64,000 bases of DNA from Candidatus Woesearchaeota archaeon (GCA_047602735.1 JBLKOK010000001.1:14261-78260); one strand, 5' to 3'. Numbered from the stretch's first letter, positions 14,005-58,877 are shown. Made by a program: numbers and translations. Notes: generated by a model not told the origin, from the letters alone.

Positions 14005-14150
14005 TCTTCATCATCATCAAAAAAAGTATCTAAATTCTGGCTTTTAATTTTTGCTTTATAACTTATACTTGCCATACAATCAATATTAAAACAAGTCTTT
14101 ATAAATTAATCTAAGATGCAATATAACTCTTCTAAACTATAAACTAAATA

Positions 14151-14444
14151 CTATTTTTTGAAATAGTTAGATAGTACATCATCTAATATAAATGCACCCA
14201 CTACTTTAGATAACGACTTCATATTAGGATCTAAGTTTTTAGGAATTATATAATCTAAAACTAAGTCGTATAGTTCTAGTTTTTCTTTATCAGATAAGTC
14301 AAAGGAAGGCTTATCTTTAGGTATTGCTTTGTTTATGTCAAATGGTTTTGGCTTATAAGAAGGAGATTTAAATTTGTTAGATTCAGATACTTTAGACTTC
14401 ATAGAAGAGTCTTTATAAACATTAAAAGATTCTTCATATTCCAT
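14151..14444 (-). CDS. Hypothetical protein (97 aa), overlaps the end of the vWA gene by 11 nt
   Basis: ORF only; the overlap suggests co-transcription with the MoxR/vWA genes. Confidence 0.35.
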   Translation of the reverse strand: MEYEESFNVYKDSSMKSKVSESNKFKSPSYKPKPFDINKAIPKDKPSFDLSDKEKLELYDLVLDYIIPKNLDPNMKSLSKVVGAFILDDVLSNYFKK

Positions 14445-15834: not shown

Positions 15835-15907
15835 AACATAATTAATTAGTTAAACTATAACTTATATTGAACTGATAAAAAACCAGAAGATATACGGATA
15901 AATACCT

Positions 15908-17194
15908 TTATTTTACGTAGCTTTCAAAAACAGGATGATCCATACTTTTAGCTTTGGTTTTTGCTTTAACATAATCTTTTTTTAATATATAATCTATTAT
16001 TTCTTCTTGATGCCCTTTAAGTTTTGAGAAACGTTTAACTACGTCATTAACTAAGTTAAATGATATCTCTAAAGAAGTAGGATGATCTCTTTTGTCTAAT
16101 TGCTTATTTTGAGAATAAGATTCTTTTATAAAATTTTTATGCCAGACTGCATAAGGTGTTACTTGTACTACATCAGCCATTTTTACTTCGTTATCATTTC
16201 TTAACCAAGCAAGAGCTTTACTATAATTAGCTATAGAAGATTGAGTTCTTATACTTATAGGCGATTTTATTTTACTACAAGAATAAGTATTATAATGACA
16301 CCCAGAAGGACAGCTATCAGTACTTCTTTTAACTCCAAATTGTGAACAACTTGTAAATTCAGATATTAATAAATCTAAAAATAAATTAGTCTCTTTGGTA
16401 AAAGCTATTGATTTTATGTCTTGGTTAATTTTTTTTATTTCTTCTTTTGATAATAGTTCAAGTCCATATTGATCAAATAATTCTTTTTTAAAACTCATAG
16501 ATATATCATTTAAAGTATCATCTAAGTTTGGAGTGTTTAAATTTTTTTTATATTGATTTAGATAATTAGAATAAACTAAAGAAGCAGTTTTTTTAGACCT
16601 TATCATCCTAGCTATGTTTATATTAGGACTTTTAGTTTCTAAACATAAATCAAATCTATCTAGTAATGGAGGAATTATAGAGTAATTTCCTTGATCTTTA
16701 TAGTTTGCTGTCGCAAACCAAGCGCTTGATTTTGATTGATAATTGTCATTTAGAAAATTCCAAGAATTTGTTTGCATACCACTTAAGAGTATATTTTGCT
16801 TACTTTCAGGTATTCTGTTTACTTCATCTATTATCTTAGAAGGAACTTGTACAAAATCACTCCAAAGAACTTTTTCTTCTCCTTTGTTTAATAATCCAAG
16901 ATCAGGTCTTCCCACAATATATTCATAAGATAATTCAGGATGACCTTTTAGGCTTGAAGAAGAAATTATACTTATAGGAAGATTTGTTGTTAGAGAGCTT
17001 ATTGTTTCAGCCAGAGTAGTTTTTCCAAGTCCATACTCACCCACATATAATATTTTGTTGTTTAAAAGGCTTGAAAGTAAACCAAATATTAACTCCGAAT
17101 TATATTTATCAAATCCTATGGTTATATCTGAGCTGCAAAAATAAATATTGTTTTTAATGAAATTATACGTGTCTAATAGTTTAGCTTTTGTCAT
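15908..17194 (-). CDS. MoxR-like AAA+ ATPase with Cys-rich insert
   Basis: Walker A GEYGLGKTT, Walker B plus sensor IIDEVNRIPESKQNILLSGMQ, and ATANYKDQGNYSIIPPLLDRFDL. Cys cluster CSQFGVKRSTDSCPSGCHYNTYSC. Confidence 0.7.
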   Translation of the reverse strand: MTKAKLLDTYNFIKNNIYFCSSDITIGFDKYNSELIFGLLSSLLNNKILYVGEYGLGKTTLAETISSLTTNLPISIISSSSLKGHPELSYEYIVGRPDLGLLNKGEEKVLWSDFVQVPSKIIDEVNRIPESKQNILLSGMQTNSWNFLNDNYQSKSSAWFATANYKDQGNYSIIPPLLDRFDLCLETKSPNINIARMIRSKKTASLVYSNYLNQYKKNLNTPNLDDTLNDISMSFKKELFDQYGLELLSKEEIKKINQDIKSIAFTKETNLFLDLLISEFTSCSQFGVKRSTDSCPSGCHYNTYSCSKIKSPISIRTQSSIANYSKALAWLRNDNEVKMADVVQVTPYAVWHKNFIKESYSQNKQLDKRDHPTSLEISFNLVNDVVKRFSKLKGHQEEIIDYILKKDYVKAKTKAKSMDHPVFESYVK

Positions 17195-17252
17195 TAAACT
17201 ACTAATAAAAAAAATTTAATAAAAGAATATCTTGCTAAAATCCGTAAAATAT

Positions 17253-17375
17253 CTATGATTTCTTAAAAGAATTTTCTTTGCATTCCTCACTGCAAAATGT
17301 TTTTCCTTGAAATAATATAGCTTCATTAAAAGCTACAGCTTTACCACAATTTCCACAATAACTTGAAGTTAACAT
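17253..17375 (-). CDS. Small zinc-finger protein (TRASH-like CxxC...FCSxxC), 40 aa
   Basis: ORF absent from the supplied track; my own translation is MLTSSYCGNCGKAVAFNEAILFQGKTFCSEECKENSFKKS. Confidence 0.4.
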   Translation of the reverse strand: MLTSSYCGNCGKAVAFNEAILFQGKTFCSEECKENSFKKS

Positions 17376-17419
17376 AAGTAATAAAATTAATTAATCATTT
17401 ATAATGATTTTGAAAAATA

Positions 17420-17896
17420 TTAATCAAATAAATATTTTAATCCGTTTTTGGATATAGCTTCAACTTCGTTTAAATTGTAGCCTTGAGAGACTAACTCATC
17501 TTCTGGTTTAAAATAAAAAGATTCTTTATCTTTGGACATATAACATAAGTGGCCTTGAATAGGATCTTTAGAATCTTTTAAAATAAGTGAAACATCATCA
17601 TGTAAAAACCTCGTTATATCAGATCTACTAATATTTTTCTCAAAAGATTTTTTGTTTAATATCAATCTTTCTTTCCCATTAGATTTAATAACCGCACTAT
17701 ATTCTCCATTAATAGTTAATAATTTTTCTTCACCATTTAATTCGACATAAAATTCATTTGTATCAGTGTTTAAGCCCATATAAATAGCATCCACTTCTAA
17801 TAAATTAGGAGCTTTAGGTCGTTTTTGTAATAGAGTTACTTTATCCCCTAACCAAGACGCAGTTTGTTCCAAACTGACAATTGTTGATTTAGTCAT
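17420..17896 (-). CDS. Hypothetical protein
   Basis: 158-aa ORF with no recognised motif. Confidence 0.4.
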   Translation of the reverse strand: MTKSTIVSLEQTASWLGDKVTLLQKRPKAPNLLEVDAIYMGLNTDTNEFYVELNGEEKLLTINGEYSAVIKSNGKERLILNKKSFEKNISRSDITRFLHDDVSLILKDSKDPIQGHLCYMSKDKESFYFKPEDELVSQGYNLNEVEAISKNGLKYLFD

Positions 17897-17935
17897 TTTA
17901 AAGTAGTAAACATTCTTTATTTAAAAAACTTTTTA

Positions 17936-18991
17936 TTAATTTTTAACCAAATCAAAATATAACTCATGAGTTAACTTTTCTTTGTTTGTAACACTATAAT
18001 TTGAAGGAAGCTCGTGTTTATCTAATTCCTCCCAAAACAACTTAGAGTTCTTGTAAGGAATATCATCAATTTTATCTATTTGACTAGAACCAAAATATCT
18101 TATCTCGGCTTTTTTAGGCTTAAATAGTTTTATTAGAGGGTTTAAACTCTTAAATATGATACTTTTAGCACTTCCACTTATAAAAAAAGATACGTAGCTA
18201 CTTTCAGGAGTTATATGATAAGCCGCACTCCCATTGTCTAATTGTCCAACATAACTAAATCCTTTTATTTCACTTCCATCCAAAGCATCAAATTCTTTAG
18301 ACATACGACCAGAAACTTTAAGATTTGAAGCTGCTATTACAGATTCTAATAAAGGAATACCCTTAGAATTATTTAATTTTTTTAAGACCTTTAAATCTAC
18401 GTTGTATAATGAAACCAACATGTTTTTTTCAACAGGACTTTCTTTAGTTTGATTCACTTTTAATAAATCATGTCTATCACTTATTAAGTCACAATATATT
18501 CCTTTGACGTCTTTTTGCTTTGATTTTAACGTGTAGAAGAAAGGTATTTTTTGATCGTCAAATTTTTCCCAAAATAAGTCTTCATCACTCTCTTTTAATT
18601 CTTCTACAGCACTAGATGTAAAATATCTTATTTCTACTTTTACAGGATCAAAAAGATTTATTAGTGGATCTAGTGCTTTTAGAGGATCTGGCTCCCCACA
18701 AGTTGATAAAAAAAATGAAGCATATCTTTGACTTGGAAATATACTCGTTGCAGCCGTGCTCTCAGAGAGCATCGCAATATATCTTTTTCTTCCAACTTCT
18801 CTTGGAAGTTTTATTTCTATATCCCTCATTCCAAGATCCGATAATTTTCCATCTATGTTTGCGCCACTTTCAAATATTATTTTTTCAACATTTGCTACAG
18901 AGAATTGTTTGTTTAAAGTAGAATTTTTTATTACGTTTATTCCATATAATGCTACAAACAAATTTTTTTCAACAGGATTAAACTGAGTCAT
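17936..18991 (-). CDS. Hypothetical protein made of two tandem homologous ~175-aa domains
   Basis: The two halves align: NPVEKNLFVALYGINV with SPVEKNMLVSLYNVDL, and LDPLINLFDPVKVEIRYFTSSA with LNPLIKLFKPKKAEIRYFGSSQ. Confidence 0.45.
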   Translation of the reverse strand: MTQFNPVEKNLFVALYGINVIKNSTLNKQFSVANVEKIIFESGANIDGKLSDLGMRDIEIKLPREVGRKRYIAMLSESTAATSIFPSQRYASFFLSTCGEPDPLKALDPLINLFDPVKVEIRYFTSSAVEELKESDEDLFWEKFDDQKIPFFYTLKSKQKDVKGIYCDLISDRHDLLKVNQTKESPVEKNMLVSLYNVDLKVLKKLNNSKGIPLLESVIAASNLKVSGRMSKEFDALDGSEIKGFSYVGQLDNGSAAYHITPESSYVSFFISGSAKSIIFKSLNPLIKLFKPKKAEIRYFGSSQIDKIDDIPYKNSKLFWEELDKHELPSNYSVTNKEKLTHELYFDLVKN

Positions 18992-30539: not shown

Positions 30540-32279
30540 ATGGAAGAAAGCAGTATAAAGTCTTTTATAAAAACAATAATAAAACTACTGCCAGACTTCA
30601 AGAAATTATTCATATTCTTCTTAATATTTACAATAATATACGAAGCAATAAAATTTATCCCACCATACTTAGTAAAACTAATAATAGATAACTTAATAGA
30701 AAGTCCAGATCAAAACTACTTATTTTTACTCGTAGGACTTATACTTTTAACATTAGTAATAATGACTGTTATGCACGTATTTGTTTTGACAAGAGTTGTA
30801 AAAGGAGCAACAACGCAACAAAAAAGCTTACTTTATAGAAGCTTCAAAAAACTTCTAAGACTACCTTTAAACTGGCACGAAAAACAAAATACAGGAAGTT
30901 TGATTAGTAAATTACAAAAAGCATCAAAATATGTACAAGAGCTAGTCTGGTTTGTAAATAACGATATACTCCCGAGCATAGTACAACTAGTGCTTACAGG
31001 AGCAATATTGTTTTGGGTGGACTGGAGGTTAGGACTTATATTCTTAATTTTCACACCGATAATACTCTACACTGTAGATAGACAATTTAGAAAAGTGCAG
31101 CCATTAAGAGAGTCTTATCATCAAGCATACGAGAGTGCAACAAATACTTTTGCGCAAAGTCTTTACAATATTAAAACAGTAAAAGATTATGTTCAAGAAG
31201 AAAAAGAAGAAAGAGAACACTTAAAAGACTTAGAGAGATATCAAGAGAGCGTATATAAAAGAATAGATTATGAATTCTGGCAAATCTCATTTAGGGATAC
31301 ACTCACAAATATAGTTAGAGCAATTACTATGGCAATTTCCATAAAGTTAGTGTTAGATGGAGTTATAACCCCTGGAGATCTAGTGTTTGTATTTACAATA
31401 GTAGAAAAAGCATATATTAACTTACATAGACTAGGAAGAGTATATTCATTTATGGGAGACACATATGAATCATTGAATAGAGCAAAGAAGATACAAGAAA
31501 CAGAAAATGAGTTGCTTGATAACGGAAATAAAAAACCAAAACAACCAATAATTAAATTTGAAGATGTTAGTTTTTCATATGGAAACGAGGCAGTAATAAA
31601 TAAAATAAGCTTGTTAATTCCAAATAATAAAACAACTGCCTTGGTAGGCCCTAGTGGATCTGGAAAAACAACTATTGTTAAATTAATAATGAGGCACTAC
31701 GATGTAGACTCAGGAAGTATTAAGATAGACGGACTAGATATACGAGATGTTTCTTTAAATGAACTTAGAAGAAACATAGCATTTGTAAGTCAACATACAG
31801 AGATGTTTGATAGAACAATAAAAGAAAACATAGGATATAGTAAGAAAAAAGCAAATAAGCGTGAAATAATAGCTGCTGCAAAGAAAGCAAATGCACATAA
31901 ATTCATAATGAGTTTTAAAGACGGATATGATACAATTGTAGGTGAGAGAGGTGTGCGCTTGTCAGGAGGTCAACAGCAACGTATAAGTATTGCTAGAGCA
32001 CTTTTAAGTAATGCAAAAATAATTGTGTTTGATGAAGCAACAAGCAGCCTTGATTCGGAGAGTGAAAAAGAAATTCAATCTGCTCTTTTAAAAATAAAGA
32101 ATAAGACAGTTATTATAATTGCACATAGATTCTCAACGATAGAACATTCAGATAATATTATTGTGTTAAAAGATGGAAAAGTAGTAGAGCAAGGAAGTCA
32201 CGAAAACTTAAGTAAGAAGAAAGGAGGACTCTATAAAAAGATGAGAGAACTTCAAAAACTAGGAGAGATAAGAGATTAA
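30540..32279 (+). CDS. ABC transporter, fused permease/ATPase (MsbA/exporter type)
   Basis: N-terminal six-TM region, Walker A GPSGSGKTT, signature LSGGQQQR, and Walker B IIVFDEATS. Confidence 0.9.
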   Translation: MEESSIKSFIKTIIKLLPDFKKLFIFFLIFTIIYEAIKFIPPYLVKLIIDNLIESPDQNYLFLLVGLILLTLVIMTVMHVFVLTRVVKGATTQQKSLLYRSFKKLLRLPLNWHEKQNTGSLISKLQKASKYVQELVWFVNNDILPSIVQLVLTGAILFWVDWRLGLIFLIFTPIILYTVDRQFRKVQPLRESYHQAYESATNTFAQSLYNIKTVKDYVQEEKEEREHLKDLERYQESVYKRIDYEFWQISFRDTLTNIVRAITMAISIKLVLDGVITPGDLVFVFTIVEKAYINLHRLGRVYSFMGDTYESLNRAKKIQETENELLDNGNKKPKQPIIKFEDVSFSYGNEAVINKISLLIPNNKTTALVGPSGSGKTTIVKLIMRHYDVDSGSIKIDGLDIRDVSLNELRRNIAFVSQHTEMFDRTIKENIGYSKKKANKREIIAAAKKANAHKFIMSFKDGYDTIVGERGVRLSGGQQQRISIARALLSNAKIIVFDEATSSLDSESEKEIQSALLKIKNKTVIIIAHRFSTIEHSDNIIVLKDGKVVEQGSHENLSKKKGGLYKKMRELQKLGEIRD

Positions 32280-32876
32280 ATCATCTAAGAAATCTTTATC
32301 ATCATCTAAAAACCTGAGATTATACGCCCTTTTACCAATATGACCTTCAGGGAGTAAATCGTTTATTTCCTTGTAAGAATAAGGAGGATTTTTATGATCT
32401 ACAACTAATTCATTATAAGATAGCCAAAGAACTTGTTTGTATAACTCTTGCTTAGAATGTTTTCCCTCGATGAACGCAGGTAAAAAAACTTCTTTTAAAA
32501 ATTTTTTATGATCTTTATATGTATCTTCAAAGCTTTTACTTGGAAAGTTTTTATGTAAAACAGAAGTTCCTTGTAATAACTTGTAATGTTTTACTAAGTT
32601 CATAAAAGTTTTAGGGCTTTGAGAATCACCTATTTTTTTTCCAGATTTTAATTCATCTAAAGAATAACCAGATATAGATACAGGTCCTAATACTTCATGT
32701 CCTTTTATTTTATTAAAAGTCGGTCTTAGAGATTCTTTAAATATTACAACTAAGTCAATATCGCTTTTAGGAAGCATTTCTTTCATAAGATATGAACCTT
32801 TTAAATAAATAGCAAAAACTCCTTCACCTAAGTGCTCATTTATGTATTCTATGGCATTATCAATAAAATGTTGCAT
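32259..32876 (-). CDS. Nucleotidyltransferase-domain protein (ANT/KNTase-like)
   Basis: GS...DxD pattern: KGSYLMKEMLPKSDIDLVVIF. Confidence 0.55.
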   Translation of the reverse strand: MQHFIDNAIEYINEHLGEGVFAIYLKGSYLMKEMLPKSDIDLVVIFKESLRPTFNKIKGHEVLGPVSISGYSLDELKSGKKIGDSQSPKTFMNLVKHYKLLQGTSVLHKNFPSKSFEDTYKDHKKFLKEVFLPAFIEGKHSKQELYKQVLWLSYNELVVDHKNPPYSYKEINDLLPEGHIGKRAYNLRFLDDDKDFLDDLISYLS

Positions 32877-32885
32877 TATATCTTA

Positions 32886-33575
32886 TTATTTTTGAATAAT
32901 ATAAATATTGTCTAATAAATCAGGCTTTAAGTTCAATATATCTATGACTTTGAAAGTGTCTGATAAATGTATTAAGAAACAATCATAAACCTCAATACCA
33001 TATTCTTCTTTTAAAATAAGACTGTAAAAAGATAGCTGCATTGAGTAGAGATAAAATTTGTTGTTTGGAAATTCACTAAAAGGATGTTTTGCCATTTCAA
33101 AAACTTCCTTTTTATCTATGTTTTTTTTATTTGTTTTCCAATCAAAAATAAGTATGTTACCTTTACTATCTTTTACTAATAAATCAATTGTTCCTGCAAC
33201 TTTAAACTTTGATGAAAATACTCTTATCTCAGAAGCAAGTATTTCATAGTTATTCTCTTTTAAAAAATCAATTGCAGGTTTAATCTTAATTAATTCATCA
33301 GAAGATAATTCTTTGTTTTTTAAATACCCATCAATTAAGTCATGAACTAATGAACCATTGTCTTTTACTTCATCCCAAGATCTTAATATTTCTTTTTTTG
33401 AGACTGAGTTTCTTTTAGCAAGTTCATCTGCTATTTTTTCTCTTTCAAAAGGAAAATATTTAGAGAGAGTTTTTGTGACACTCTTAAACTCAACTCCGTT
33501 AACAAAGTATTTATGATGTTTAGCATCGAATGATAAATTATTTTTTTTATTATGAGTTTTTATTTTGTTAATCAT
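32886..33575 (-). CDS. PD-(D/E)XK nuclease (RecB/Cas4-like exonuclease fold, no Cys cluster)
   Basis: HHKYFVNGVEFKSVTKTL N-terminal pattern, GTIDLL (D), IFDWKT (D-x-K) and QLSFY. Shares a 4-nt overlap with the ligase gene. Confidence 0.55.
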   Translation of the reverse strand: MINKIKTHNKKNNLSFDAKHHKYFVNGVEFKSVTKTLSKYFPFEREKIADELAKRNSVSKKEILRSWDEVKDNGSLVHDLIDGYLKNKELSSDELIKIKPAIDFLKENNYEILASEIRVFSSKFKVAGTIDLLVKDSKGNILIFDWKTNKKNIDKKEVFEMAKHPFSEFPNNKFYLYSMQLSFYSLILKEEYGIEVYDCFLIHLSDTFKVIDILNLKPDLLDNIYIIQK

Positions 33576-35299
33576 TGTGAACTGAAAGCTTCCTCAATTT
33601 CAGATAAAAAAGCTATTTCTTCTAAAGGTTTATCTTCACGCAAAGCAATTATTCTTGGAAATCTTAGGGCAAACCCAGAATTGTAACTTGGACTTTTTTG
33701 TATTTCTTCAAATCTTATACTTACAACAATGCTTGGAGTTACTTCTACTTCTCTTCCTGCTTGTTTTGTAATGATTGGTTTTAATAAGTTAGTTAGTTCT
33801 TCAAAAGATAATCCTTCTTCTTTTTTTTCTTTAAGACCAGTACCTACTTTTCCAATTTCTAAAACCTCTCCGTCATCATAACACCCAACTGTGAATGATG
33901 TTAGCCACCCACTTCTTTTTCCTGTTCCCCATTCTGCCTTAACTATTACGAGGTCAAGTTCATCCATGTGAGGTTTTATTTTAACCATACTTCCAACTCT
34001 AGAACCTGGCTTGTATGGGCTGTCTAAGCTTTTTGCCATGAGGCCTTCGTTACCTAAAGATATTGATTCGTCAAAGAATCTTGCAGCAACCTCGTCTTCA
34101 TCAGTTACTATTTGTTTTATTAAGATTATTTTTTTAGGCTCTTGAACTATTATTTTTTCTAATTCTTCTCTTCTTTTAACAAAAGGTTTTTCTAAGTATT
34201 CCTCGCCATTTAAGTAAAGTAAGTCAAACACGTTTATTTCAACAGGTAATTGTTTTACTAATTTTTCAACGTCGTACTTTCTTTTTATTCTTTGACTTAT
34301 GTTTTGAAAAGGAGTGTATTTTAGAGTTTTAGGATTGTATCCTGCAGCTTCACAATCTATTATGAAAGAGTCCGCTTTAACATGTTCTTTTATGCATTTA
34401 ACTACGTCAGGAAACTGAGCTGTTACTTCTTCAAGTCTTCTTGTAAAAATTCTTATAGTATCATCTTGCTTTTGTATTTGCATCCTAAACCCATCCATTT
34501 TGTATTCAAAAGCAGCAGGTCTTCCAACATCATCAAACGAGTCTTTTAGAGAAGATCTTTGTGCAAGCATAACTTTTATAGGCTTACCAATAGTTATTTT
34601 GAGCTCTTTTAATTTATGTATTCCTTGCTTTGATAGTTTAGCAATTAAAGAATAATCATTTGTTTTATTTATAGCAGATTGTAATACTTCTATTATTTCA
34701 TTATACTTTTCTCTATCAGGATTTATAGAATCTGTTTCATCATCATAATTTGGATTAGTTAAATAAGTCCAAGCAATAGCATCTCTTAGAGTTCCTTCAG
34801 CCACTCCAACTCTTAAGTCTTGAAGCACAGTTCTTATTATGTATTTTGCTTCTATAGCAGATGCACTACTTAAAAGATTTGAAACAAGTTTAACTTTTTG
34901 ATCAGTACTACCAATACCTTCAGTTAAAGCCAATTTTCTAAGTGTTAAAAAAACTTTTTGTATAGAAAGAGTTTCTTGGAATAGTGTGTTTTGTTTTTTT
35001 GATTTGAATAATTCCTGAGTTACAACTCCTAAGTCTCCAACTTCTCTCCATTTGTCTTCCAATTCTTTTACGTTAAACCCAGTTACTATACTTATAGATT
35101 TCAATATGAGTCTATTTGACATTCCAAGTTCAGAAGAATTAGACATCGGAAATACCTGCCCTTTTAGAAGTAATACTACTTTTTCTATGTCTTCATCAGA
35201 TACATTTTTTATTAAATCAGATATAATCTTTGTTTTTTTTAATCTTTTAGTGTTTAATTCTAATTCTTGATAAGCATTTGCTAGAACTTTATACTCCAT
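33572..35299 (-). CDS. lig: ATP-dependent DNA ligase
   Basis: Adenylation motif EYKMDGFR (KxDG), EGLMAK, and an OB-domain C-terminus RFPRIIALREDK. Confidence 0.92.
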   Translation of the reverse strand: MEYKVLANAYQELELNTKRLKKTKIISDLIKNVSDEDIEKVVLLLKGQVFPMSNSSELGMSNRLILKSISIVTGFNVKELEDKWREVGDLGVVTQELFKSKKQNTLFQETLSIQKVFLTLRKLALTEGIGSTDQKVKLVSNLLSSASAIEAKYIIRTVLQDLRVGVAEGTLRDAIAWTYLTNPNYDDETDSINPDREKYNEIIEVLQSAINKTNDYSLIAKLSKQGIHKLKELKITIGKPIKVMLAQRSSLKDSFDDVGRPAAFEYKMDGFRMQIQKQDDTIRIFTRRLEEVTAQFPDVVKCIKEHVKADSFIIDCEAAGYNPKTLKYTPFQNISQRIKRKYDVEKLVKQLPVEINVFDLLYLNGEEYLEKPFVKRREELEKIIVQEPKKIILIKQIVTDEDEVAARFFDESISLGNEGLMAKSLDSPYKPGSRVGSMVKIKPHMDELDLVIVKAEWGTGKRSGWLTSFTVGCYDDGEVLEIGKVGTGLKEKKEEGLSFEELTNLLKPIITKQAGREVEVTPSIVVSIRFEEIQKSPSYNSGFALRFPRIIALREDKPLEEIAFLSEIEEAFSSQ

Positions 35300-52730: not shown

Positions 52731-52854
52731 GCCCAGGTCGCATAGTCTGGTATTGCGCAGGATTGCTAAGAACTACATAGTCCTTATGAAAACCTACAAT
52801 ACCCGCAAACATCCTGTCCCTTTGGGATCGTGGGTTCAAATCCCACCCTGGGCG
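52731..52854 (+). tRNA. tRNA-Ser (anticodon GCU) with a ~42-nt intron at the canonical 37/38 position
   Basis: Acceptor GCCCAGG/CCTGGGC. Anticodon stem CAGGA/TCCTG (52758-62 / 52812-16) with loop TTGCTA. Anticodon at 52765-67, intron about 52769..52810. Long variable arm TCCCTTTGGGATC (class II), T-arm GTGGG-TTCAAAT-CCCAC, discriminator G, no encoded CCA. Confidence 0.85.
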
Positions 52855-52856
52855 TC
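52844..52856 (+). repeat. Direct repeat copy 1: CACCCTGGGCGTC (last 11 nt of tRNA-Ser plus 2 nt)
   Basis: Identical 13-mer recurs at 57719..57731. Confidence 0.8.
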
Positions 52857-52863
52857 TTTTTTT
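52857..52863 (+). terminator. Oligo-T tract directly after tRNA-Ser
   Basis: A run of seven T starts 3 nt after the discriminator base. Archaeal RNA polymerase terminates at oligo-T. Confidence 0.4.
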
Positions 52864-52874
52864 CTATAATGTTT

Positions 52875-52885
52875 TGGGCGTCTTT
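52875..52885 (+). repeat. Partial extra copy TGGGCGTCTTT of the tRNA-Ser 3' end/trailer
   Basis: Identical 11-mer at 52849..52859, 26 nt upstream. Confidence 0.6.
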
Positions 52886-53279
52886 ACCTAGACAAATACT
52901 TCGTCATCATATCTTTTATATCTTCAAATTCTAGTCTTGATAAGAAATCTTCTTTGTTTAGCCAAACATAATCTATATGTTCATCAGATATATTCATATT
53001 GGAACCATGAACTTTGACGTGATAATAGTGAATAGTCCTTGTTTTTTGCTTATTTGTTTTTTTACTAATAAAACTAAATGTAATTTCCCCAATTTTTTTA
53101 TGAATAGAACTTTTATCAATACCTGTTTCTTCCAACAACTCTCTATTAATAGTTTGATCATGAGTTTCGCCAGGCTCTATATGTCCTTTACAAGGTTCCC
53201 ATACCCCTGTATCTTTTCTTTTAAGCAACAAAAACTTATTTTCACTCTCAACTAAAAGCCCTACTCCATCTTCTCCCAT
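52884..53279 (-). CDS. Nudix hydrolase
   Basis: Nudix box GHIEPGETHDQTINRELLEETGI. Confidence 0.8.
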   Translation of the reverse strand: MGEDGVGLLVESENKFLLLKRKDTGVWEPCKGHIEPGETHDQTINRELLEETGIDKSSIHKKIGEITFSFISKKTNKQKTRTIHYYHVKVHGSNMNISDEHIDYVWLNKEDFLSRLEFEDIKDMMTKYLSR

Positions 53280-54001
53280 TCTTTTAACCTCTTATATACA
53301 TACTTAACTTCTAAAAAAATATGTTCAGTGTTATTAAAATTTTCTTCGATTGTAATTATAAAATCTTTTTTTCTTGGAAATTTTTCGAGCATTTCAGTCA
53401 AAGCAATACCATTTTTTTGCTCTAAAAAAAATTGCAGGTGATGAACCCCATCAATAATATTACTAAGATGTATATGATTTATATGGTTTTTTAATTTTGA
53501 AGTGAGTAAATTAAATTCATCTCTACCAAAATGATAAGCATGACTTGTGTCTAAAGTCATATTTAACAAATTATTTTTTTTAAAAACGTCGATTATTTTT
53601 TCTCCATTCCAATCCCCAGTTAAAGTATTCTCAATTGTAAAAGGATAATTAAATTTTTTTAACAACTCAACACTTTCAACGTTATATAAATGCCAAACAA
53701 CATGTTTAGCTTTCACAAGTTCAGCAAAAGAAATTATTCTTTTAAATAATAATTCATAGTTTTCTTTTGTGACAAAAAATTTTTTGAACGGAGCATGAAC
53801 AATATTAGATCTGAAAGATTGTAAAAAATTTATGTGATCTTTATCTTCTTCTATTTCAGTCATTTCACTTTGATTTGCCATACATAGTTCAAGACCATCA
53901 AGATATTTACGAAGTCCTGAATTATCAATAAGAATTCTTTGATCTTTTAATGTCATTCTTAATTTGTAAAACGTACCAGTTCCTAAAAATAATTTATTCA
54001 T
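53261..54001 (-). CDS. Xylose-isomerase-like TIM-barrel protein (sugar phosphate isomerase/epimerase or AP-endonuclease-2 superfamily)
   Basis: HVVWHLYN, TLDTSHAYHFG and INHIHLSN are spaced as in this fold. Confidence 0.55.
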   Translation of the reverse strand: MNKLFLGTGTFYKLRMTLKDQRILIDNSGLRKYLDGLELCMANQSEMTEIEEDKDHINFLQSFRSNIVHAPFKKFFVTKENYELLFKRIISFAELVKAKHVVWHLYNVESVELLKKFNYPFTIENTLTGDWNGEKIIDVFKKNNLLNMTLDTSHAYHFGRDEFNLLTSKLKNHINHIHLSNIIDGVHHLQFFLEQKNGIALTEMLEKFPRKKDFIITIEENFNNTEHIFLEVKYVYKRLKEWEKME

Positions 54002-54795
54002 CTAACTAACCTCTCAAATCTTTTTGCTTCTTCTTTGTAAAGACACTTTTTAATATCAGGTCTTATTTTTTCTAATCTAACTAATGTATTCATCACAGAC
54101 GCCTTTTTTTGATTAAAATCTTTTCCATGTTCGTAAAGCAATCTTTTTGCTAAATCTACTCCTAATCTATCAATAGAAGGTTCGATAAACCCATCCTTGT
54201 CAAAAAGTATTACTGGTTTACTCATTAATTTATTATGAGGAGAACCCGAATAATAAGTATCATTTATAATTCTACAAGTTTCCATAGGTACTTTAAAACC
54301 CCCTTCAATTATTTCATTTTCAACGTGAACCGCCATAGAACTTCCTTCAAAATTCTTAAAGCGATAAATATATTCTTTTGGAACCTTTCTAAATGAATAT
54401 AGAGTTTGAGGTGTTATTCCATTAGCAAATTTATCAACAAAAATATCTGGAGTCATAAAATGAACAGTAATCAAATTATGTTCACCATCAACTGTTTCAT
54501 GTCTAGTGCTCATAAGATTTGTTTGATCAGTCATCATGTAGTTTATTGCTTTTTTTGCATCAACATTATATCCTTCAAAAATAGGACTTTCTAAAACAGA
54601 CTTAATGTCTTCTGGTTGACAAAAAACCATAGTATCAAGGTCTGTTCCCTCTCTAATAGCATAATTCATACTATGAGCTGTTGTACCTACAATTATTGAT
54701 GCTCTTGAATGTGGCTCAACACTTTTAATAAATTTTTCTGTTAATTTTTCTAAACTTTTTTGTCTTTTGTCATTATTTACAAATTTTTTTATCAT
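53998..54795 (-). CDS. Hypothetical protein, probable nucleotidyltransferase fold
   Basis: IIVGTTAHSMNYAIREGTDLDTMVF resembles G[ST]-x(9-12)-DxD. This is weak evidence. Confidence 0.4.
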   Translation of the reverse strand: MIKKFVNNDKRQKSLEKLTEKFIKSVEPHSRASIIVGTTAHSMNYAIREGTDLDTMVFCQPEDIKSVLESPIFEGYNVDAKKAINYMMTDQTNLMSTRHETVDGEHNLITVHFMTPDIFVDKFANGITPQTLYSFRKVPKEYIYRFKNFEGSSMAVHVENEIIEGGFKVPMETCRIINDTYYSGSPHNKLMSKPVILFDKDGFIEPSIDRLGVDLAKRLLYEHGKDFNQKKASVMNTLVRLEKIRPDIKKCLYKEEAKRFERLVR

Positions 54796-55667
54796 CTTAT
54801 CGTATCCCTCACTTTATACCCTGCTATATATCTTTTAACTCCAAAATCTTCAACAATTGATTCAAGAACAGGTTTTTCACCAGTCCATTGTTTAACTCTT
54901 TTTTCGTTGATAGGATCAAAAGGAGTATTATGCCATGAACCATAAGGAACAGAAATAACAATTATATCCTTTGAAAGACTTTTTAGTTTTGAATAAAATT
55001 TTTTTGGATCGTCAACATGTTCTAATACTTGTTGACATAAGACTATATCGTACTTTCCTTCTGGTTTATAATCGAATATATCCATTTCAATACAATTTAT
55101 ATCCTTAGGATATACAAAGTCATTTGGAAATTCATTATCAATAGCAAATTTTTGATAAGTATTAGGAAACATGTCGAGCGTGACTGTAGAATCTTTAATA
55201 CCAACATCCAGTATTTTTCCATGTTTTGTTACACTCATTTTAGATGCAAAGTTAAATGCTTCACGATAATATTTGAAATTTTTTCTAAATTCTCCATAAT
55301 TTTGAATCATCTGCCAATATTGCCAGTTTTCATCAGAAAATTTTCCTTTTAATATTGAAAATACTTCAGGTAATTTTTTTAATATTTTTGTATGAAATTC
55401 ATCTAATTTTCTCTCATTAAGATAGTATATTATCTTATTATCTTTTATATTAGGATCGTGTGATTCTAATGAGACTAAGGAAGTAATATTATTATTTAAT
55501 TTAATATTTGTATTACTAAAATCAACAATGTATTCAATTATATTAAAATCATTATTATCTTTGTGGTTATAATTTCTTTTTGTGATAAGAGGAATATTTT
55601 TTCCTTTACTTAATTTTTTAATATACCTTTCAAGTTTGGGTTCGTTGTTTTTAAGTAAAAATTTCAT
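54792..55667 (-). CDS. Class I SAM-dependent methyltransferase (C-terminal domain) with unknown N-terminal domain
   Basis: KILDVGIKDS (motif I-like), YDIVLCQQVLEHVDDP (motif II/III), and IVISVP. Confidence 0.6.
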   Translation of the reverse strand: MKFLLKNNEPKLERYIKKLSKGKNIPLITKRNYNHKDNNDFNIIEYIVDFSNTNIKLNNNITSLVSLESHDPNIKDNKIIYYLNERKLDEFHTKILKKLPEVFSILKGKFSDENWQYWQMIQNYGEFRKNFKYYREAFNFASKMSVTKHGKILDVGIKDSTVTLDMFPNTYQKFAIDNEFPNDFVYPKDINCIEMDIFDYKPEGKYDIVLCQQVLEHVDDPKKFYSKLKSLSKDIIVISVPYGSWHNTPFDPINEKRVKQWTGEKPVLESIVEDFGVKRYIAGYKVRDTIR

Positions 55668-56551
55668 AATATTTCACGCTCTACAAAATCAACTATATCA
55701 CTTAATTTTCCCGATGTTGCGTATGAAGGAGTACTATCTGTCAGTTGTTTCATTTTATGTAATATTTTTTGTCTTTCTTTATATGCAACTGGAGTGGTTA
55801 AAGGCATAAGATTGCTTACTAGCAAACGAGGGAATTCCTCTAAGAAATAATAGCCTTGATTTACAAACCTTGTGAGTTTGGGCGTGCCATTTAACTCAAT
55901 TCCCATAAAATTTCCTGAATGTTTTTGTGGATAAACAATAGCATCTATCCCAGTAGGTTCAAAATGGTAGTTAAAAGGACTTTGTTCAGGTGAAAAAGTC
56001 ACTCTGTTTTCAAATTTATAATTTCTTAATATTTCTGAAAAATAAGGAAACTCTTCGGCTAAAGACGCTGCATTAAAATTCAAAATTTTGGTACCTGCAA
56101 CTATCATTTCATTATCAATTAAAGTTCTATCTCCAGAGATTATCTTTGTATCAGGTCTTCTTTTAATTAATTCCATCATAAAAGTTGTTTTCCCAGCACC
56201 AGAACGACCAGGTATAAGAATTGTTTTATCATCTATTCTTACAGCAGATGAATGAATTGAATAAATTCCTTTTTTTGACCAAAGATACTCAGAAATCTTA
56301 GAAGTAATAGCCATAATGTCTTCACTAATTATTTTTTGAGTACTATAAATTGCTTCTTCATTCGAGATATTGAAAATAGGTTTTCCTTCTTGTATCTTAA
56401 TAAGAAAATCTTTTGTTGGCTCAATAATTATTTTATCTATAGATTCTTCTATTTTTACATCAGGAATATATTGTCTGATAAGCTTTTTTGTTTTATCATT
56501 GGGAGAAAAATCATTAAAAATAATATTTTGTAGATACATCTCTAATTTCAT
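55664..56551 (-). CDS. HPr-kinase-like P-loop protein (HprK-related kinase family)
   Basis: HSSAVRIDDKTILIPGRSGAGKTTFMMELIKR parallels the HprK C-terminal-domain pattern H..a......g.l..G.SG.GKS..a.eL. Confidence 0.5.
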   Translation of the reverse strand: MKLEMYLQNIIFNDFSPNDKTKKLIRQYIPDVKIEESIDKIIIEPTKDFLIKIQEGKPIFNISNEEAIYSTQKIISEDIMAITSKISEYLWSKKGIYSIHSSAVRIDDKTILIPGRSGAGKTTFMMELIKRRPDTKIISGDRTLIDNEMIVAGTKILNFNAASLAEEFPYFSEILRNYKFENRVTFSPEQSPFNYHFEPTGIDAIVYPQKHSGNFMGIELNGTPKLTRFVNQGYYFLEEFPRLLVSNLMPLTTPVAYKERQKILHKMKQLTDSTPSYATSGKLSDIVDFVEREIL

Positions 56552-57633
56552 TTACTTACCTCCTTCAAGAGAAACTCATTTATAATTGCTTCCTCAACAC
56601 CTATGAGTTTATATTTACCAATTTCAGTTAAAAGAACAAATTTCATCTTTCCATTAGACGATATTTTATCTGTTTTAAATGAATATATCATACTTTTTAT
56701 TTGTTTTGAAGTGATTTTAAGTTCAGGTAAATTTTTTGATAAAAGACTAGTCATATTAGTATGATGTTTATAGTTTATTTCATCTAACATACCTAGTTTG
56801 TAAGATAATTTTGCTGCTAATTCCATCCCTTTTAGAACAGCTTCCCCATGATTTATTGTTTGATCTATACTTTCAATCGCATTGGCAAAAGTATGACCAT
56901 AACTTAACGCTTTGTGAACTCCTGTTTTATCATAAGGATCCTGTTTAACAAAAAAAGCTTTGATATTATGAGAAATTTGTATTACGTTTTTTCTATCAGT
57001 TAAAGATTCTTCATTATTAGCAATTTTTATTATAATGTCTTTAAAATACTTTTTATCAATTAGTTTAGAATGTTCTTTATAATTTGTTATAAAATAATGT
57101 TTTAATACTTCAACAAGTCCTTGCATCATTAATTTTCTAGGCATAGATGAAATAAATATATCTTCTATAATTATATACTTTGGACTATAAAACGAACCAA
57201 ATACGTTTTTCTTTTCATTAGATATAGCAACTTTCCCAATAATGTGGTCACTCATTGACATAAAAGATGTTGGAATTTGTATAAAATCTATTCCTCTCAT
57301 ATAAATTGATGCACAAAAACCTGTAATATCTCCAGTAACACCTCCACCCACCCCTATAATACAAGAATCTCTATCAAGATTCTTATTTGTCAATTGTTTT
57401 AATATCGGCACAACATTATTCAAATTTTTAGTCTTTTCATAAGGAGATATGAGAATTATATCTTTGAAATTGTTATCCACATAATTTTTGTGCAACCTAT
57501 AAATATTTTCATCAACTAAAGCAATAATTTTGGAATAATCAGATAGATCGATATCATCGATGGAATATAATAAAACAGGAAGCTCATTCTTAGTAATATA
57601 TTCTTCTCTGTTAAAGTAAAAGTTACTAATCAT
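56548..57633 (-). CDS. 3-dehydroquinate-synthase-like sugar phosphate cyclase
   Basis: IGVGGGVTGDITGFCASIYMRGIDFIQIPTSFMSMSDHIIGKVAISN, ALSYGHTFANAIE and NHGEAVLKGM align motif-for-motif with the DHQS/EEVS/DOIS superfamily. Confidence 0.8.
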   Translation of the reverse strand: MISNFYFNREEYITKNELPVLLYSIDDIDLSDYSKIIALVDENIYRLHKNYVDNNFKDIILISPYEKTKNLNNVVPILKQLTNKNLDRDSCIIGVGGGVTGDITGFCASIYMRGIDFIQIPTSFMSMSDHIIGKVAISNEKKNVFGSFYSPKYIIIEDIFISSMPRKLMMQGLVEVLKHYFITNYKEHSKLIDKKYFKDIIIKIANNEESLTDRKNVIQISHNIKAFFVKQDPYDKTGVHKALSYGHTFANAIESIDQTINHGEAVLKGMELAAKLSYKLGMLDEINYKHHTNMTSLLSKNLPELKITSKQIKSMIYSFKTDKISSNGKMKFVLLTEIGKYKLIGVEEAIINEFLLKEVSK

Positions 57634-57676
57634 AAGTAGTATACTTGCAAAATAATTTATAAATTTTATTTCTTAT

Positions 57677-57718: not shown

Positions 57719-57731
57719 CACCCTGGGCGTC
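57719..57731 (+). repeat. Direct repeat copy 2: CACCCTGGGCGTC
   Basis: Exact match to the tRNA-Ser 3' end (52844..52856). Lies in the intergenic gap between the cyclase operon and the dehydrogenase gene. Confidence 0.8.
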
Positions 57732-57752
57732 CTTATTTTTAAAGAAACAAAT

Positions 57753-58877
57753 TTAACTTATTTTTATTAGCTTACCACTATCAGTTATTACATATAAATA
57801 ATCATCAGGACTTTGAGATACATCTCTAATTCGCTCCCCTAAGTTTTTTAGTAGCGGCTCTGCTTGTTTTACTTCACCATCTTCTTGTATTATAAATCTT
57901 CCAAGGTATTGACCTGCCAAGTTACCCACAAATAAATCTCCGTTAAACTTTTCTAATCGTTCACCTTGATAAAAAATCATACCTGCAGGAGGAAATCCAC
58001 CAGTACCACATTCCCAAACATAAACAGGGTTTTCAACGTCTTCATTCTCAAATTCCGATTCTGCTACAGGCGTGCTTGTCCCATACCTACAACCAGAGTG
58101 AGCAATTGGCCAACCATAATTACTTCCTGATCTTATGATATTTATTTTATCTCCGTCTCGCTCACCGTGTTCGCTTGCCCATAACTCATTTGTAACAGGG
58201 TTTAATGCTAAACCTTGAACATTTCTATGACCATAAGTATATATCTCATCTAAAACAGATTCATCATCAATAAATGGATTATCTAAAGGAACCGTTCCAT
58301 TTTTATATAATCTTATTATTGTTCCTAAATAATTTTGGGTGTCTTGAGAAACGTGTTGAGGACCAAAATTTTTTTGTCCCCTATCACCCGTACTATAATA
58401 TACATATTCTCCTTGAGTTATAACTCTAGATCCAAAATGCGCACCTCCTTGCATAAAAGGTGTTGCTATGTGAATTACTTCAAATTCTTTAAGAGCTAAT
58501 TTTTCTAAATCTAATATTGCTTTACCTAAATGCGTTGCATATCCTTGATCGTTTGAAGCACTATAAGTCAAATAAACATAACCTTCATTAAAATGAACAT
58601 CTAACAAACCCCCTTGACCAATATTTGATATTTGAGGTAAACCAGACAATTTTACTTTATGAAAGTTTTCTAAATTTAAATAAATTAAATCCCCTTGCTT
58701 TTCAGTTATTAAAATTTGATTTTCAGATATAAATTCTAATCCCCAAGGATTATTTAACTTTTCATAAACTACTTCATATGTATAATTTAATTCATCATTA
58801 AATACTTCTAACTGAGAAGTAGAGCACCCCATTAAAAAAATCGATGCTGTTATTAATATAAAAAAAACTTTTTTCAT
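57753..58877 (-). CDS. PQQ-dependent soluble sugar (glucose/sorbosone) dehydrogenase-like beta-propeller lipoprotein
   Basis: Lipobox-like signal MKKVFFILITASIFLMGCS; NNPWGLEF, GHRNVQGLALNP and SNYGWP. Confidence 0.8.
   Translation of the reverse strand: MKKVFFILITASIFLMGCSTSQLEVFNDELNYTYEVVYEKLNNPWGLEFISENQILITEKQGDLIYLNLENFHKVKLSGLPQISNIGQGGLLDVHFNEGYVYLTYSASNDQGYATHLGKAILDLEKLALKEFEVIHIATPFMQGGAHFGSRVITQGEYVYYSTGDRGQKNFGPQHVSQDTQNYLGTIIRLYKNGTVPLDNPFIDDESVLDEIYTYGHRNVQGLALNPVTNELWASEHGERDGDKINIIRSGSNYGWPIAHSGCRYGTSTPVAESEFENEDVENPVYVWECGTGGFPPAGMIFYQGERLEKFNGDLFVGNLAGQYLGRFIIQEDGEVKQAEPLLKNLGERIRDVSQSPDDYLYVITDSGKLIKIS

Follow-up and report, generated by a model that had tools for sequence, protein, structure and literature searches.

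An apparently mobile archaeal operon around a dehydroquinate synthase-like cyclase: a possible cyclitol-activation pathway

What does a 3-dehydroquinate synthase (DHQS)-like enzyme do in an archaeal operon that has no other shikimate-pathway gene in its surroundings? The question is raised by a 64,000-nucleotide (nt) stretch of DNA, hereafter the window, from the genome of a Candidatus Woesearchaeota archaeon (GCA_047602735.1, JBLKOK010000001.1:14261-78260). It contains six minus-strand open reading frames (ORFs), spanning 57633-52884, which are joined by four 4-nt ATGA overlaps and one 19-nt overlap (ATGGGAGAAGATGGAGTAG). A first-pass annotation, made from the sequence alone, had described this layout with the same coordinates and overlaps, and it held when the junctions were re-read on the coding strand. 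Our answer is a tentative one that has a real chance of being right: the operon may be a mobile unit that builds, phosphorylates, nucleotidylates and methylates a carbocyclic sugar (cyclitol). The six genes, with their predicted products, are as follows.

56548-57633, minus strand: cyclase, 361 amino acids (aa), predicted DHQS-like sugar-phosphate cyclase of a 'His-Ser-Asn' clade, not a canonical AroB
55664-56551, minus strand: kinase, 295 aa, predicted P-loop phosphotransferase with a mini-PEPCK/HprK-like fold
54792-55667, minus strand: methyltransferase (MTase), 291 aa, predicted class I S-adenosylmethionine (SAM)-methyltransferase fold plus a 130-aa N-terminal extension
53998-54795, minus strand: nucleotidyltransferase (NTase), 265 aa, predicted divergent Pol-beta fold
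53261-54001, minus strand: TIM barrel, 246 aa, AP_endonuc_2-related, with endonuclease IV-type metal ligands
52884-53279, minus strand: Nudix, 131 aa, predicted minimal Nudix hydrolase

The fold labels given to these proteins at first pass were broadly right, and two of them shift: the kinase lies nearer to PEPCK than to HprK, and the barrel nearer to endonuclease IV and MJ1311 than to sugar isomerases. As had also been stated, the combination of genes matches no described pathway in the family libraries or the available literature. Literature searches on sugar phosphate cyclases together with Nudix enzymes, on DHQS in candidate phyla radiation (CPR) bacteria or DPANN archaea, on MJ1311 and on the DHQS residue numbers found no description of the module.

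The cyclase and its relatives

Membership of the DHQS superfamily is clear from both Pfam domains, each over its cutoff (DHQ_synthase PF01761, 2.8e-31, 108 bits; DHQS_C PF24621, 2.8e-21, 76 bits), and the motifs GGGVTGD, GHTFANAIE and HGEAV noted earlier are present. We aligned the cyclase with CPR relatives, an Ignavibacteria AroB and E. coli AroB (alignment A6; the E. coli sequence is approximate). The GGGxxGD NAD motif, the Glu/His/His metal ligands and the ring-contacting Asp/Lys/Asn/Lys/Lys are kept in the cyclase, with G96-G98, D102, E175, H247 and H262 invariant in the alignment. These conserved residues predict a catalytically intact member of the DHQS/sugar-phosphate cyclase superfamily. 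The protein is identical to one listed at NCBI for a "Candidatus Woesearchaeota archaeon" metagenome-assembled genome (MAG).

Within the superfamily, the cyclase appears to belong to a subfamily separate from AroB, because it scores below the cutoff of the aroB equivalog model TIGR01357 (245 against 305 bits), has an altered substrate-contacting triad and has no shikimate genes around it in the window or the related loci. Genuine AroB was rejected on these grounds, in line with the view taken at first pass. The CPR relative in locus L004 is likewise under the TIGR01357 cutoff, at 285.8 bits. Where true AroB reads G-L-R-x-x-L-N-x-G-H-T-F-x-H, the cyclase reads G-V-H-K-A-L-S-Y-G-H-T-F-A-N, so that Arg is replaced by His, Asn by Ser and His by Asn; in addition, the GGK loop is one residue shorter and FYQP is changed to FYSP. 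[quoted passage not shown] As for context, the absence of any other shikimate gene from the window, reported at first pass, was borne out by a Pfam scan of the 55 other ORFs (E <= 1e-5), and none was found within the flanks of about 8 kb of the related loci.

The altered signature is shared widely. Among the best 120 database matches, 97 carry His/Ser/Asn and 20 the canonical R/N/H, which is constant in all 20, and there are no intermediates. In a neighbour-joining (NJ) tree rooted on AroB-type sequences and built without bootstrap, the altered-signature sequences fall on one side, and five archaeal cyclases form one group nested beside 39 CPR sequences. The clade to which the cyclase belongs is dominated by CPR bacteria. 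Among solved structures, the nearest to the cyclase are DHQS (best 136 bits), followed by DOIS (93), DDGS (67.4) and ValA (60.6), and the analogy with pathways that pair DDGS or EEVS with a methyltransferase, which had been raised at first pass, finds no support in this ranking. The sedoheptulose-7-phosphate cyclases (EEVS, DDGS and EVS) have a 14-residue active-site fingerprint (Kean et al. 2014, cited in PMC4426668).

The partners of the cyclase in bacteria were examined in six Paceibacterota-type CPR loci, which have the following contents.

L004 and L007: methyltransferase, nucleoside-diphosphate kinase (NDK) fused to a P-loop kinase, Nudix-glycosyltransferase family 2 (GT2) fusion, 257-aa NTP_transf_2 protein, cyclase, convergent 315-aa protein
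L006: Nudix-NTase fusion overlapping the cyclase
L074: cyclase, Nudix, 660-aa protein (N-terminal NTase motif plus a weak choline-kinase/APH-like C terminus), second Nudix, NDK
L075: Nudix, 343-aa protein, NTase, carbamoyltransferase, cyclase, Nudix, double nucleotide-kinase-like protein
L076: adenosine deaminase, Nudix, 385-aa protein, Nudix, 347-aa protein, NTase, cyclase

A Nudix gene is linked to the cyclase in all six of these loci and an NTase gene in five. Over the ten cyclase-bearing loci, which come from two domains of life, cyclase and Nudix are found together in every one, the NTase in nine and a kinase often.

Several CPR genes are fused: Nudix to NTase (L006, 6830-8038), Nudix to GT2 (L004, 5884-7284), NTase to a weak choline-kinase/APH-like domain (L074, 7631-9613) and NDK to a P-loop nucleotide-kinase-like domain (L004, 4828-5808). 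Such fusions link the partners of the cyclase functionally. The 315-aa protein displays, by eye, an HprK-like LHGS...GDDGSSxxKT...ADEF pattern, but its hhalign E value is 0.005 at 7% probability, and a sequence search with it against the PDB gave nothing useful; its HprK-like nature is a lead rather than a result.

The five partner enzymes

The kinase has weak Pfam matches to PEPCK_ATP (PF01293, 19.8 bits, cutoff 26.5) and Hpr_kinase_C (PF07475, 19.5 bits, cutoff 33.3), as well as weak NCBIfam matches that include HprK-related kinases A and B; a sequence search against the PDB returned nothing useful. An AlphaFold (AF2) model built from 13 homologues reached a predicted local distance difference test (pLDDT) score of 84.8. 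As assessed by Foldseek, its top match is ATP-PEPCK (E 2e-9, query TM score (TMq) 0.56-0.59), whereas HprK/P reaches a TMq of 0.26-0.32. The invariant motifs H100-S-S, GRSGAGKTT (115-123) and SGDRT (139-143) are consistent with an active P-loop phosphotransferase. Neither parent family could be retained as an assignment: HPr kinase/phosphorylase was rejected because PF07475 is below cutoff and the fold is nearer PEPCK than HprK, and ATP-dependent PEPCK because, although the fold fits, the protein has only 295 aa and an SGDRT motif, and PF01293 is below cutoff. The family is small, with 13 clusters among 5.8 billion proteins.

The MTase has marginal matches to Methyltransf_23 (1.3e-6, 28.7 bits, cutoff 27) and Methyltransf_11 (5.8e-5), and a profile of four orthologues matches the PDB methyltransferases 3mgg, 3dtn and 3cc8. 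No fold was assigned to its N-terminal 130 residues.

The NTase matched nothing in Pfam (including PF01909), in NCBIfam or in PDB sequence searches, and its family comprises eight clusters among the same 5.8 billion proteins. In alignment A1, G37..AHS..D52-x-D54 and YYSGSPHNKLMS are invariant, as is S42. The AF2 model (pLDDT 86.4) has ANT(4') with neomycin, the CDP-diacylglycerol synthase Tam41, CdnE, LinB and AAD(9) as its top Foldseek matches (E 2e-3, TM 0.32-0.37). The top-ranked matches are mainly Pol-beta-fold NTases, with probabilities up to 1.0; ANT(6) is also listed, and terminal uridylyltransferases, CCA-adding enzymes and Pol X members rank lower. The hG[GS]...D-x-D motif and the minimal NTase fold of the model place the protein, as a prediction, in the Pol-beta superfamily. 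On a 1316-nt ENA contig (P0122), a 311-aa ORF fuses 46 residues resembling the cyclase N terminus in frame to an NTase 88% identical to that of the window; it may have arisen by a deletion that removed the kinase, the MTase and the greater part of the cyclase, or it may be an assembly chimera.

For the TIM barrel, an exhaustive search collected 128 representative relatives of about 235 aa. The AP_endonuc_2 match is weak in the window protein itself, and 53 of 60 family members match this domain; two of the 60 match PF05114 (MbnB_TglH_ChrH). In the alignment of these 60 members, H69, P71, H104, D151, H154, H178 and H188 are invariant, and E124, N125 and E219 nearly so. Searches of the PDB with the single sequence and with a four-sequence profile gave nothing useful; the profile of the whole family reached MJ1311 (2e-12), the uncharacterised structure 4kw2, endonuclease IV (1.3e-5 and weaker) and D-tagatose epimerase (0.015). 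When the family was aligned by hhalign to E. coli Nfo (approximate sequence; E 1.8e-5, probability 78%), seven of the nine Nfo ligands were aligned (H109, E145, D179, H182, H216, H231 and E261). The N-terminal third falls outside this alignment, including H69 of the HAPF motif, which is a plausible further Nfo-type ligand, and members of the family do not consistently keep the Asp of the Nfo D-x-H motif. Overall, the protein resembles phosphoesterase-type barrels with a multinuclear metal site more than it does a plain sugar isomerase, and the role of simple isomerase once suggested for it is unlikely given the retained endonuclease IV ligands. A second, unrelated xylose-isomerase-like barrel exists in the window: a 665-aa protein (1935-3932, minus strand) has a C-terminal AP_endonuc_2 domain (2.6e-13) behind a 490-residue N-terminal part that has no Pfam match.

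The Nudix protein has a solid Pfam match (PF00293, 2.8e-19, 69.9 bits, cutoff 21.1), and its Nudix box, G32-x5-E-x7-REllEEtGI, is intact at residues 32-54. Among solved structures, Ap4A hydrolases come closest to it (1e-10 to 2e-8), and MTH1 and CTP pyrophosphohydrolase come next.

Archaeal relatives and an apparent island at a tRNA gene

The six genes occur in the same order, with 47-78% identity and overlapping or near-abutting junctions, in three independent contigs of Woese- or Nanoarchaeota. These are an ENA metagenome contig (L002, cyclase identity 67%), a JGI metagenome contig (L001, 55%) and the Nanoarchaeota MAG RS_10_27 (L010, 57%). The flanking genes are different in every related locus, and therefore the six genes travel together. 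This synteny shows that the layout is not accidental and upholds the earlier view of the operon as one functional unit. It is a rare unit: among 185,579 species genomes scanned, a single locus turned up, and a metagenome scan found three full-length relatives, its other 55 loci being P-loop-only matches with no further operon component in any.

Two departures from the six-gene arrangement were seen. In L001, there is a seventh overlapping gene, for an FAD-dependent oxidoreductase. In four further loci (L008, L009, L012 and L013, subgroup C), the order is kinase, MTase, NTase, TIM barrel, a 337-aa DUF362 protein and Nudix. The stable core is five genes, and the first enzyme is exchangeable. LarA-type racemases, like DHQS, act by transient hydride abstraction. 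DUF362 is in the same Pfam clan as the N-terminal domain of LarA 2-hydroxy-acid racemases (PMC11770544). A sequence search with the DUF362 protein against the PDB yielded nothing useful.

Further genes near these relatives deserve mention. On the 140-kb contig of L001, a few kb upstream of the operon and on the opposite strand, a set of genes at 908-2546 encodes a Nudix protein, a radical SAM enzyme, NDK and a radical SAM/SPASM enzyme, which is another Nudix-NDK pairing. In L002, the region 4 kb upstream of the operon contains a second, shorter Nudix paralogue (2117-2449, 110 aa), which has 68% identity to the operon Nudix. The cyclase-less operon of L008 is followed (14108-18774) by a His_Phos_1 phosphatase gene and then by a convergent glycan-type cluster with two GT4 glycosyltransferases, a radical SAM/SPASM enzyme and a GFO_IDH_MocA oxidoreductase. 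At the other end of the same operon, a 48-aa ORF overlaps the kinase start.

How did the operon come to lie where it does? At first pass, such a pathway had been called unexpected in an otherwise biosynthesis-poor small archaeal genome. The elements around the operon suggest that it is no odd piece of native metabolism.

57719-57741: upstream copy of an att-like repeat, CACCCTGGGCGTCCTTATTTTTA
57656-57663, minus strand: putative TATA-box-like element TTTATAAA, with its centre about 27 nt upstream of the cyclase ATG, recognised by reading the sequence
52844-52866: downstream copy of the repeat, which begins with the last 11 nt of a tRNA gene
52731-52854, plus strand: intron-containing tRNA gene (Rfam RF00005, 45.8 bits, E 1.1e-8, full-length model match)

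The two 23-nt repeat copies are 87% identical, are spaced by 4875 nt and bracket the operon exactly. Their 13-nt core, GACGCCCAGGGTG, occurs only twice in the window against 0.02 occurrences expected, at 52844-52856, in the tRNA 3' end, and at 57719-57731, 12 nt beyond the stop codon of the upstream gene and 85 nt ahead of the cyclase start. Immediately after the Nudix stop, at about 52870-52884, there is also a third, partial copy (AAAGACGCCCAAAAC). The tRNA gene, probably for tRNA-Ser(GCU), has a 44-nt intron and a long variable arm and was missed by ARAGORN. A repeat of a tRNA 3' end around inserted DNA is the classic footprint of site-specific integration at a tRNA gene. Because such a repeat flanks the operon, this looks like a 4.9-kb island that was acquired horizontally and integrated at the tRNA gene, its apparent target. 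The TTTATAAA element is probably the operon's promoter; the mRNA would then be leaderless and begin within the island.

No integrase family was detected by Pfam in the scanned window ORFs; a Phage_integrase gene lies 1.3 kb past the seventh (FAD) gene of the L001 operon. An empty integration site was not found, as the contigs with the upstream GSDH gene all run on into the operon, and no tRNA or other RNA gene was found adjoining the operon in L001, L002, L008 or L010. The operon appears to be a rare mobile cassette of DPANN archaea, and its cyclase comes from a large CPR-centred clade.

Some features of the surroundings complete the description. The GSDH gene (57753-58877, minus strand) encodes a lipoprotein-like member of the soluble glucose/sorbosone dehydrogenase family; it adjoins the upstream end of the island, in the same orientation and beyond the repeat, and other genomes do not conserve it beside the operon. 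Two independent Logan assemblies of the same strain are interrupted close to the ends of the operon. L071 stops 13 nt short of the cyclase start codon, having passed the upstream repeat and run about 70 nt into the island, and L069 stops within the tRNA gene, just beyond the downstream repeat. Repeats or strain heterogeneity could account for these breaks. The G+C content is about 29% throughout the window, and the remaining ORFs include typical archaeal information-processing genes (Gins51, Trm1, Cdc6, an XPD-like helicase, an ATP-dependent DNA ligase, and RtcB with archease). One run of genes at 32259-35299 (minus strand), in which two junctions overlap or nearly abut, encodes an NTP_transf_2 nucleotidyltransferase (205 aa), a PD-(D/E)XK nuclease (229 aa) and an ATP-dependent DNA ligase (575 aa), and may be a repair module.

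Proposed pathway, rival readings and known systems

In the cyclitol pathway that we put forward, the cyclase, with bound NAD+ and metal, would cyclise a sugar phosphate other than DAHP; its carboxylate-binding Arg and two phosphate-binding residues are altered. The MTase-fold protein would methylate the ring, the PEPCK/HprK-like P-loop enzyme would phosphorylate the cyclitol, and the Pol-beta NTase would join a nucleoside monophosphate (NMP) to it, giving a nucleoside diphosphate (NDP)-cyclitol or a cyclitol-O-NMP. This last step may be likened to those of Tam41, which makes CDP-diacylglycerol, and of the ANT enzymes, which adenylylate aminocyclitols. The endonuclease IV-type metallo-barrel might cleave or rearrange a phosphoester intermediate, and the Ap4A-hydrolase-like Nudix enzyme might hydrolyse a pyrophosphate-linked product or side product, for release, control or proofreading. 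What the data show are the folds and catalytic motifs, the synteny, the signature of the cyclase clade, the repeated partnership in CPR bacteria and the repeat of the tRNA 3' end. We infer the substrate, the order of the steps, the type of nucleotide link, the final product and its use, a possible use being as a surface glycoconjugate, a solute or a signal. Two structural results favour the pathway: the nearest solved structures to the NTase are small-molecule enzymes (ANT(4'), Tam41, LinB and AAD(9)), and PEPCK, which is a small-molecule kinase, is a better match for the kinase fold than the protein kinase HprK is. The chain of cyclitol formation, phosphorylation and nucleotidylation with a Nudix enzyme had been outlined at first pass; it gains from the linkage in CPR bacteria, where Nudix, NTase, kinases and fusions recur, and its simple isomerisation step becomes unlikely.

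A broader form of this idea, which we consider possible but rather doubtful, is that the His-Ser-Asn clade defines an undescribed CPR/DPANN pathway. A sugar phosphate, or possibly a nucleotide-linked sugar, would be converted to a carbocyclic pseudo-sugar that is then phosphorylated, nucleotidylated and, in CPR bacteria, transferred by the Nudix-fused glycosyltransferase.

Several observations count against a cyclitol pathway. All six enzyme assignments reach fold level only, and the motif I of the MTase, LDVGIKDS, is atypical. The archaeal operon has no glycosyltransferase or other transferase to use an activated cyclitol. Homology between the archaeal and CPR kinases, NTases and MTases was not significant (hhalign E 0.003-0.03; hmmsearch E 0.09-1.4 in 243 ORFs), and therefore the module shared by archaea and CPR bacteria is partly an analogy. 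No cyclase gene is present at the four subgroup C loci, so the five-gene core is not strictly dependent on the cyclase. Finally, the barrel has the metal site of a DNA-repair phosphodiesterase, and the nearest enzymes to the Nudix protein act on dinucleoside polyphosphates or RNA 5' ends; a nucleic-acid substrate would fit both as well.

These last points lead to the rival that survives best, a cassette for the processing or modification of nucleic-acid ends, which we regard as unlikely. The P-loop enzyme would phosphorylate 5'-OH ends, the NTase add nucleotides, the MTase methylate the terminal ribose in the manner of Hen1 and the barrel remove 3' blocks or cut lesions. The Nudix enzyme, akin to Ap4A hydrolase or RppH, would trim 5' polyphosphates or caps, leaving the cyclase or the DUF362 protein as an accessory that supplies or removes a small ligand. 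The endonuclease IV ligands of the barrel and the reach of its profile to endonuclease IV structures speak for this, as do the Ap4A hydrolases nearest to the Nudix protein, the cyclase-free core of L008, L009, L012 and L013, and the polymerase-like enzymes (terminal uridylyltransferases, CCA-adding enzymes and Pol X) further down the NTase list. However, the kinase fold is PEPCK-like and unlike that of polynucleotide kinase, the best NTase matches are small-molecule enzymes, and the variable partners (DHQS-like and LarA-clan DUF362) come from small-molecule enzyme families. In addition, the GT2, carbamoyltransferase, NDK and nucleotide-kinase-like proteins of the CPR cassettes are what a metabolite pathway would typically contain, and the operon has no nucleic-acid-binding domain or ligase.

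It is distinctly improbable that the operon instead modifies or detoxifies an exogenous aminocyclitol-like compound, with an ANT-like NTase, a kinase and an MTase inactivating the toxin from a mobile cassette. ANT(4') bound to neomycin is indeed the best structural match of the NTase, with LinB, AAD(9) and ANT(6) also listed, att-like repeats at a tRNA gene flank the operon, and its neighbourhood differs in each genome. Yet those structural matches have low scores (TM 0.32-0.37), cyclases serve biosynthesis and not resistance, the overlap-coupled set of six enzymes suggests successive steps on one metabolite, and no efflux or target-protection gene is found in the operon. A known defence system was also considered and set aside, the PADLOC matches being weak and uninformative.

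There is very little to recommend the tailoring of a ribosomally synthesised and post-translationally modified peptide (RiPP), in which an HprK-like kinase (compare phosphorylated lasso peptides), an NTase, an MTase and an MbnB/TglH-related barrel would act on a precursor. The weak NCBIfam matches of the kinase to HprK-related kinases A and B, the two PF05114 matches among 60 barrel-family members and the 48-aa ORF at the kinase start of L008 are in keeping with it. Against these, the intergenic gaps at the island measure only 119 nt and about 30 nt, which leaves no space for a precursor-peptide gene, the loci have no conserved small ORF in common, the proteases, cyclases and transporters usual in RiPP clusters are absent, and the DHQS-like and Nudix enzymes have no role. 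That the cyclase is an ordinary AroB beside unrelated genes, as its database label ('3-dehydroquinate synthase family protein') and its nearest solved relatives would have it, is hardly credible when it is under the equivalog cutoff with three substrate-contact residues replaced, is kept in synteny with its five partners in four genomes and has no shikimate genes near it in the window or in related loci.

Returning to the cyclitol pathway, its wider bearing is as follows. The cyclase clade is labelled '3-dehydroquinate synthase' everywhere; taken at face value, this would assign a shikimate step mistakenly to CPR and DPANN genomes, and spotting the altered active site corrects the metabolic reconstructions of both groups. 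If a nucleotide-activated carbasugar is made, it would represent a new branch of sugar-phosphate cyclase chemistry, and the mini-PEPCK-like kinase and divergent Pol-beta NTase would be new enzyme types for the phosphorylation and nucleotidylation of cyclitols; there would also be a concrete, testable clue to what ultra-small symbionts still synthesise for themselves. Should the broader His-Ser-Asn pathway exist, it would be among the few biosynthetic abilities kept by reduced episymbionts, and its carriage in archaea as a tRNA-targeted mobile cassette would suggest a role in surface decoration or host interaction. The apparent mobile island implies that the operon could be transferred as a unit to a heterologous host.

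Comparison with known systems shows where the operon stands. With AroB, DOIS, EEVS, DDGS and EVS, the cyclase shares the two-domain DHQS fold, the GGGxxGD motif, the Glu/His/His ligands and the ring residues; it differs in the altered triad, the GGK-loop deletion and a mostly-CPR clade of its own, and it is linked to Nudix, NTase and kinase genes and not to shikimate, aminoglycoside or mycosporine genes. The kinase shares with PEPCK and HprK the P-loop fold, an upstream His-x-Ser-Ala, a GxSGxGKT loop and a later Asp motif, but it has 295 aa against about 530 in PEPCK, and SGDRT in place of GDDEH (PEPCK) or ADD (HprK). In the TIM-barrel family, His, His, Glu, Asp-x-x-His, His, His and Glu are retained and follow one another as in the trinuclear site of Nfo, whereas the barrel is about 40 residues shorter, the D-x-H Asp is not conserved and the operon context is metabolic.

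At the level of whole pathways, the activation of C7-cyclitols in validamycin and acarbose biosynthesis, and CDP-inositol in the synthesis of di-myo-inositol-phosphate, follow a route from cyclitol to cyclitol phosphate to NDP-cyclitol donor. The proposed pathway is similar in logic, by analogy only, although those systems use ROK/GHMP-like kinases and GlgC/GT-A-like NTases where the island has PEPCK/HprK-like and Pol-beta-like enzymes and no transferase. Of the described systems, the ebo operon (EboA-F), found in bacteria and in eustigmatophyte plastids, is nearest in logic. It is thought to make a cyclitol-derived compound, and in it EboD is a non-AroB cyclase, EboE a xylose-isomerase-like barrel and EboF a hydrolase for phosphate- or nucleotide-linked substrates (PMC5133447). 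The island shares this combination of cyclase, xylose-isomerase-like barrel and phosphate/nucleotide hydrolase. It differs in that the operon has no UbiA prenyltransferase (EboC), TatD-like protein (EboB), EboF (PF01663) or EboA, with EboC, EboB and EboF also absent from the flanks. Its cyclase groups with DHQS, whereas EboD is placed on the sedoheptulose-7-phosphate cyclase side. The pyrophosphatase is of the Nudix type here and of the alkaline-phosphatase fold in ebo, and a kinase, an NTase and an MTase are added in the archaeal operon.

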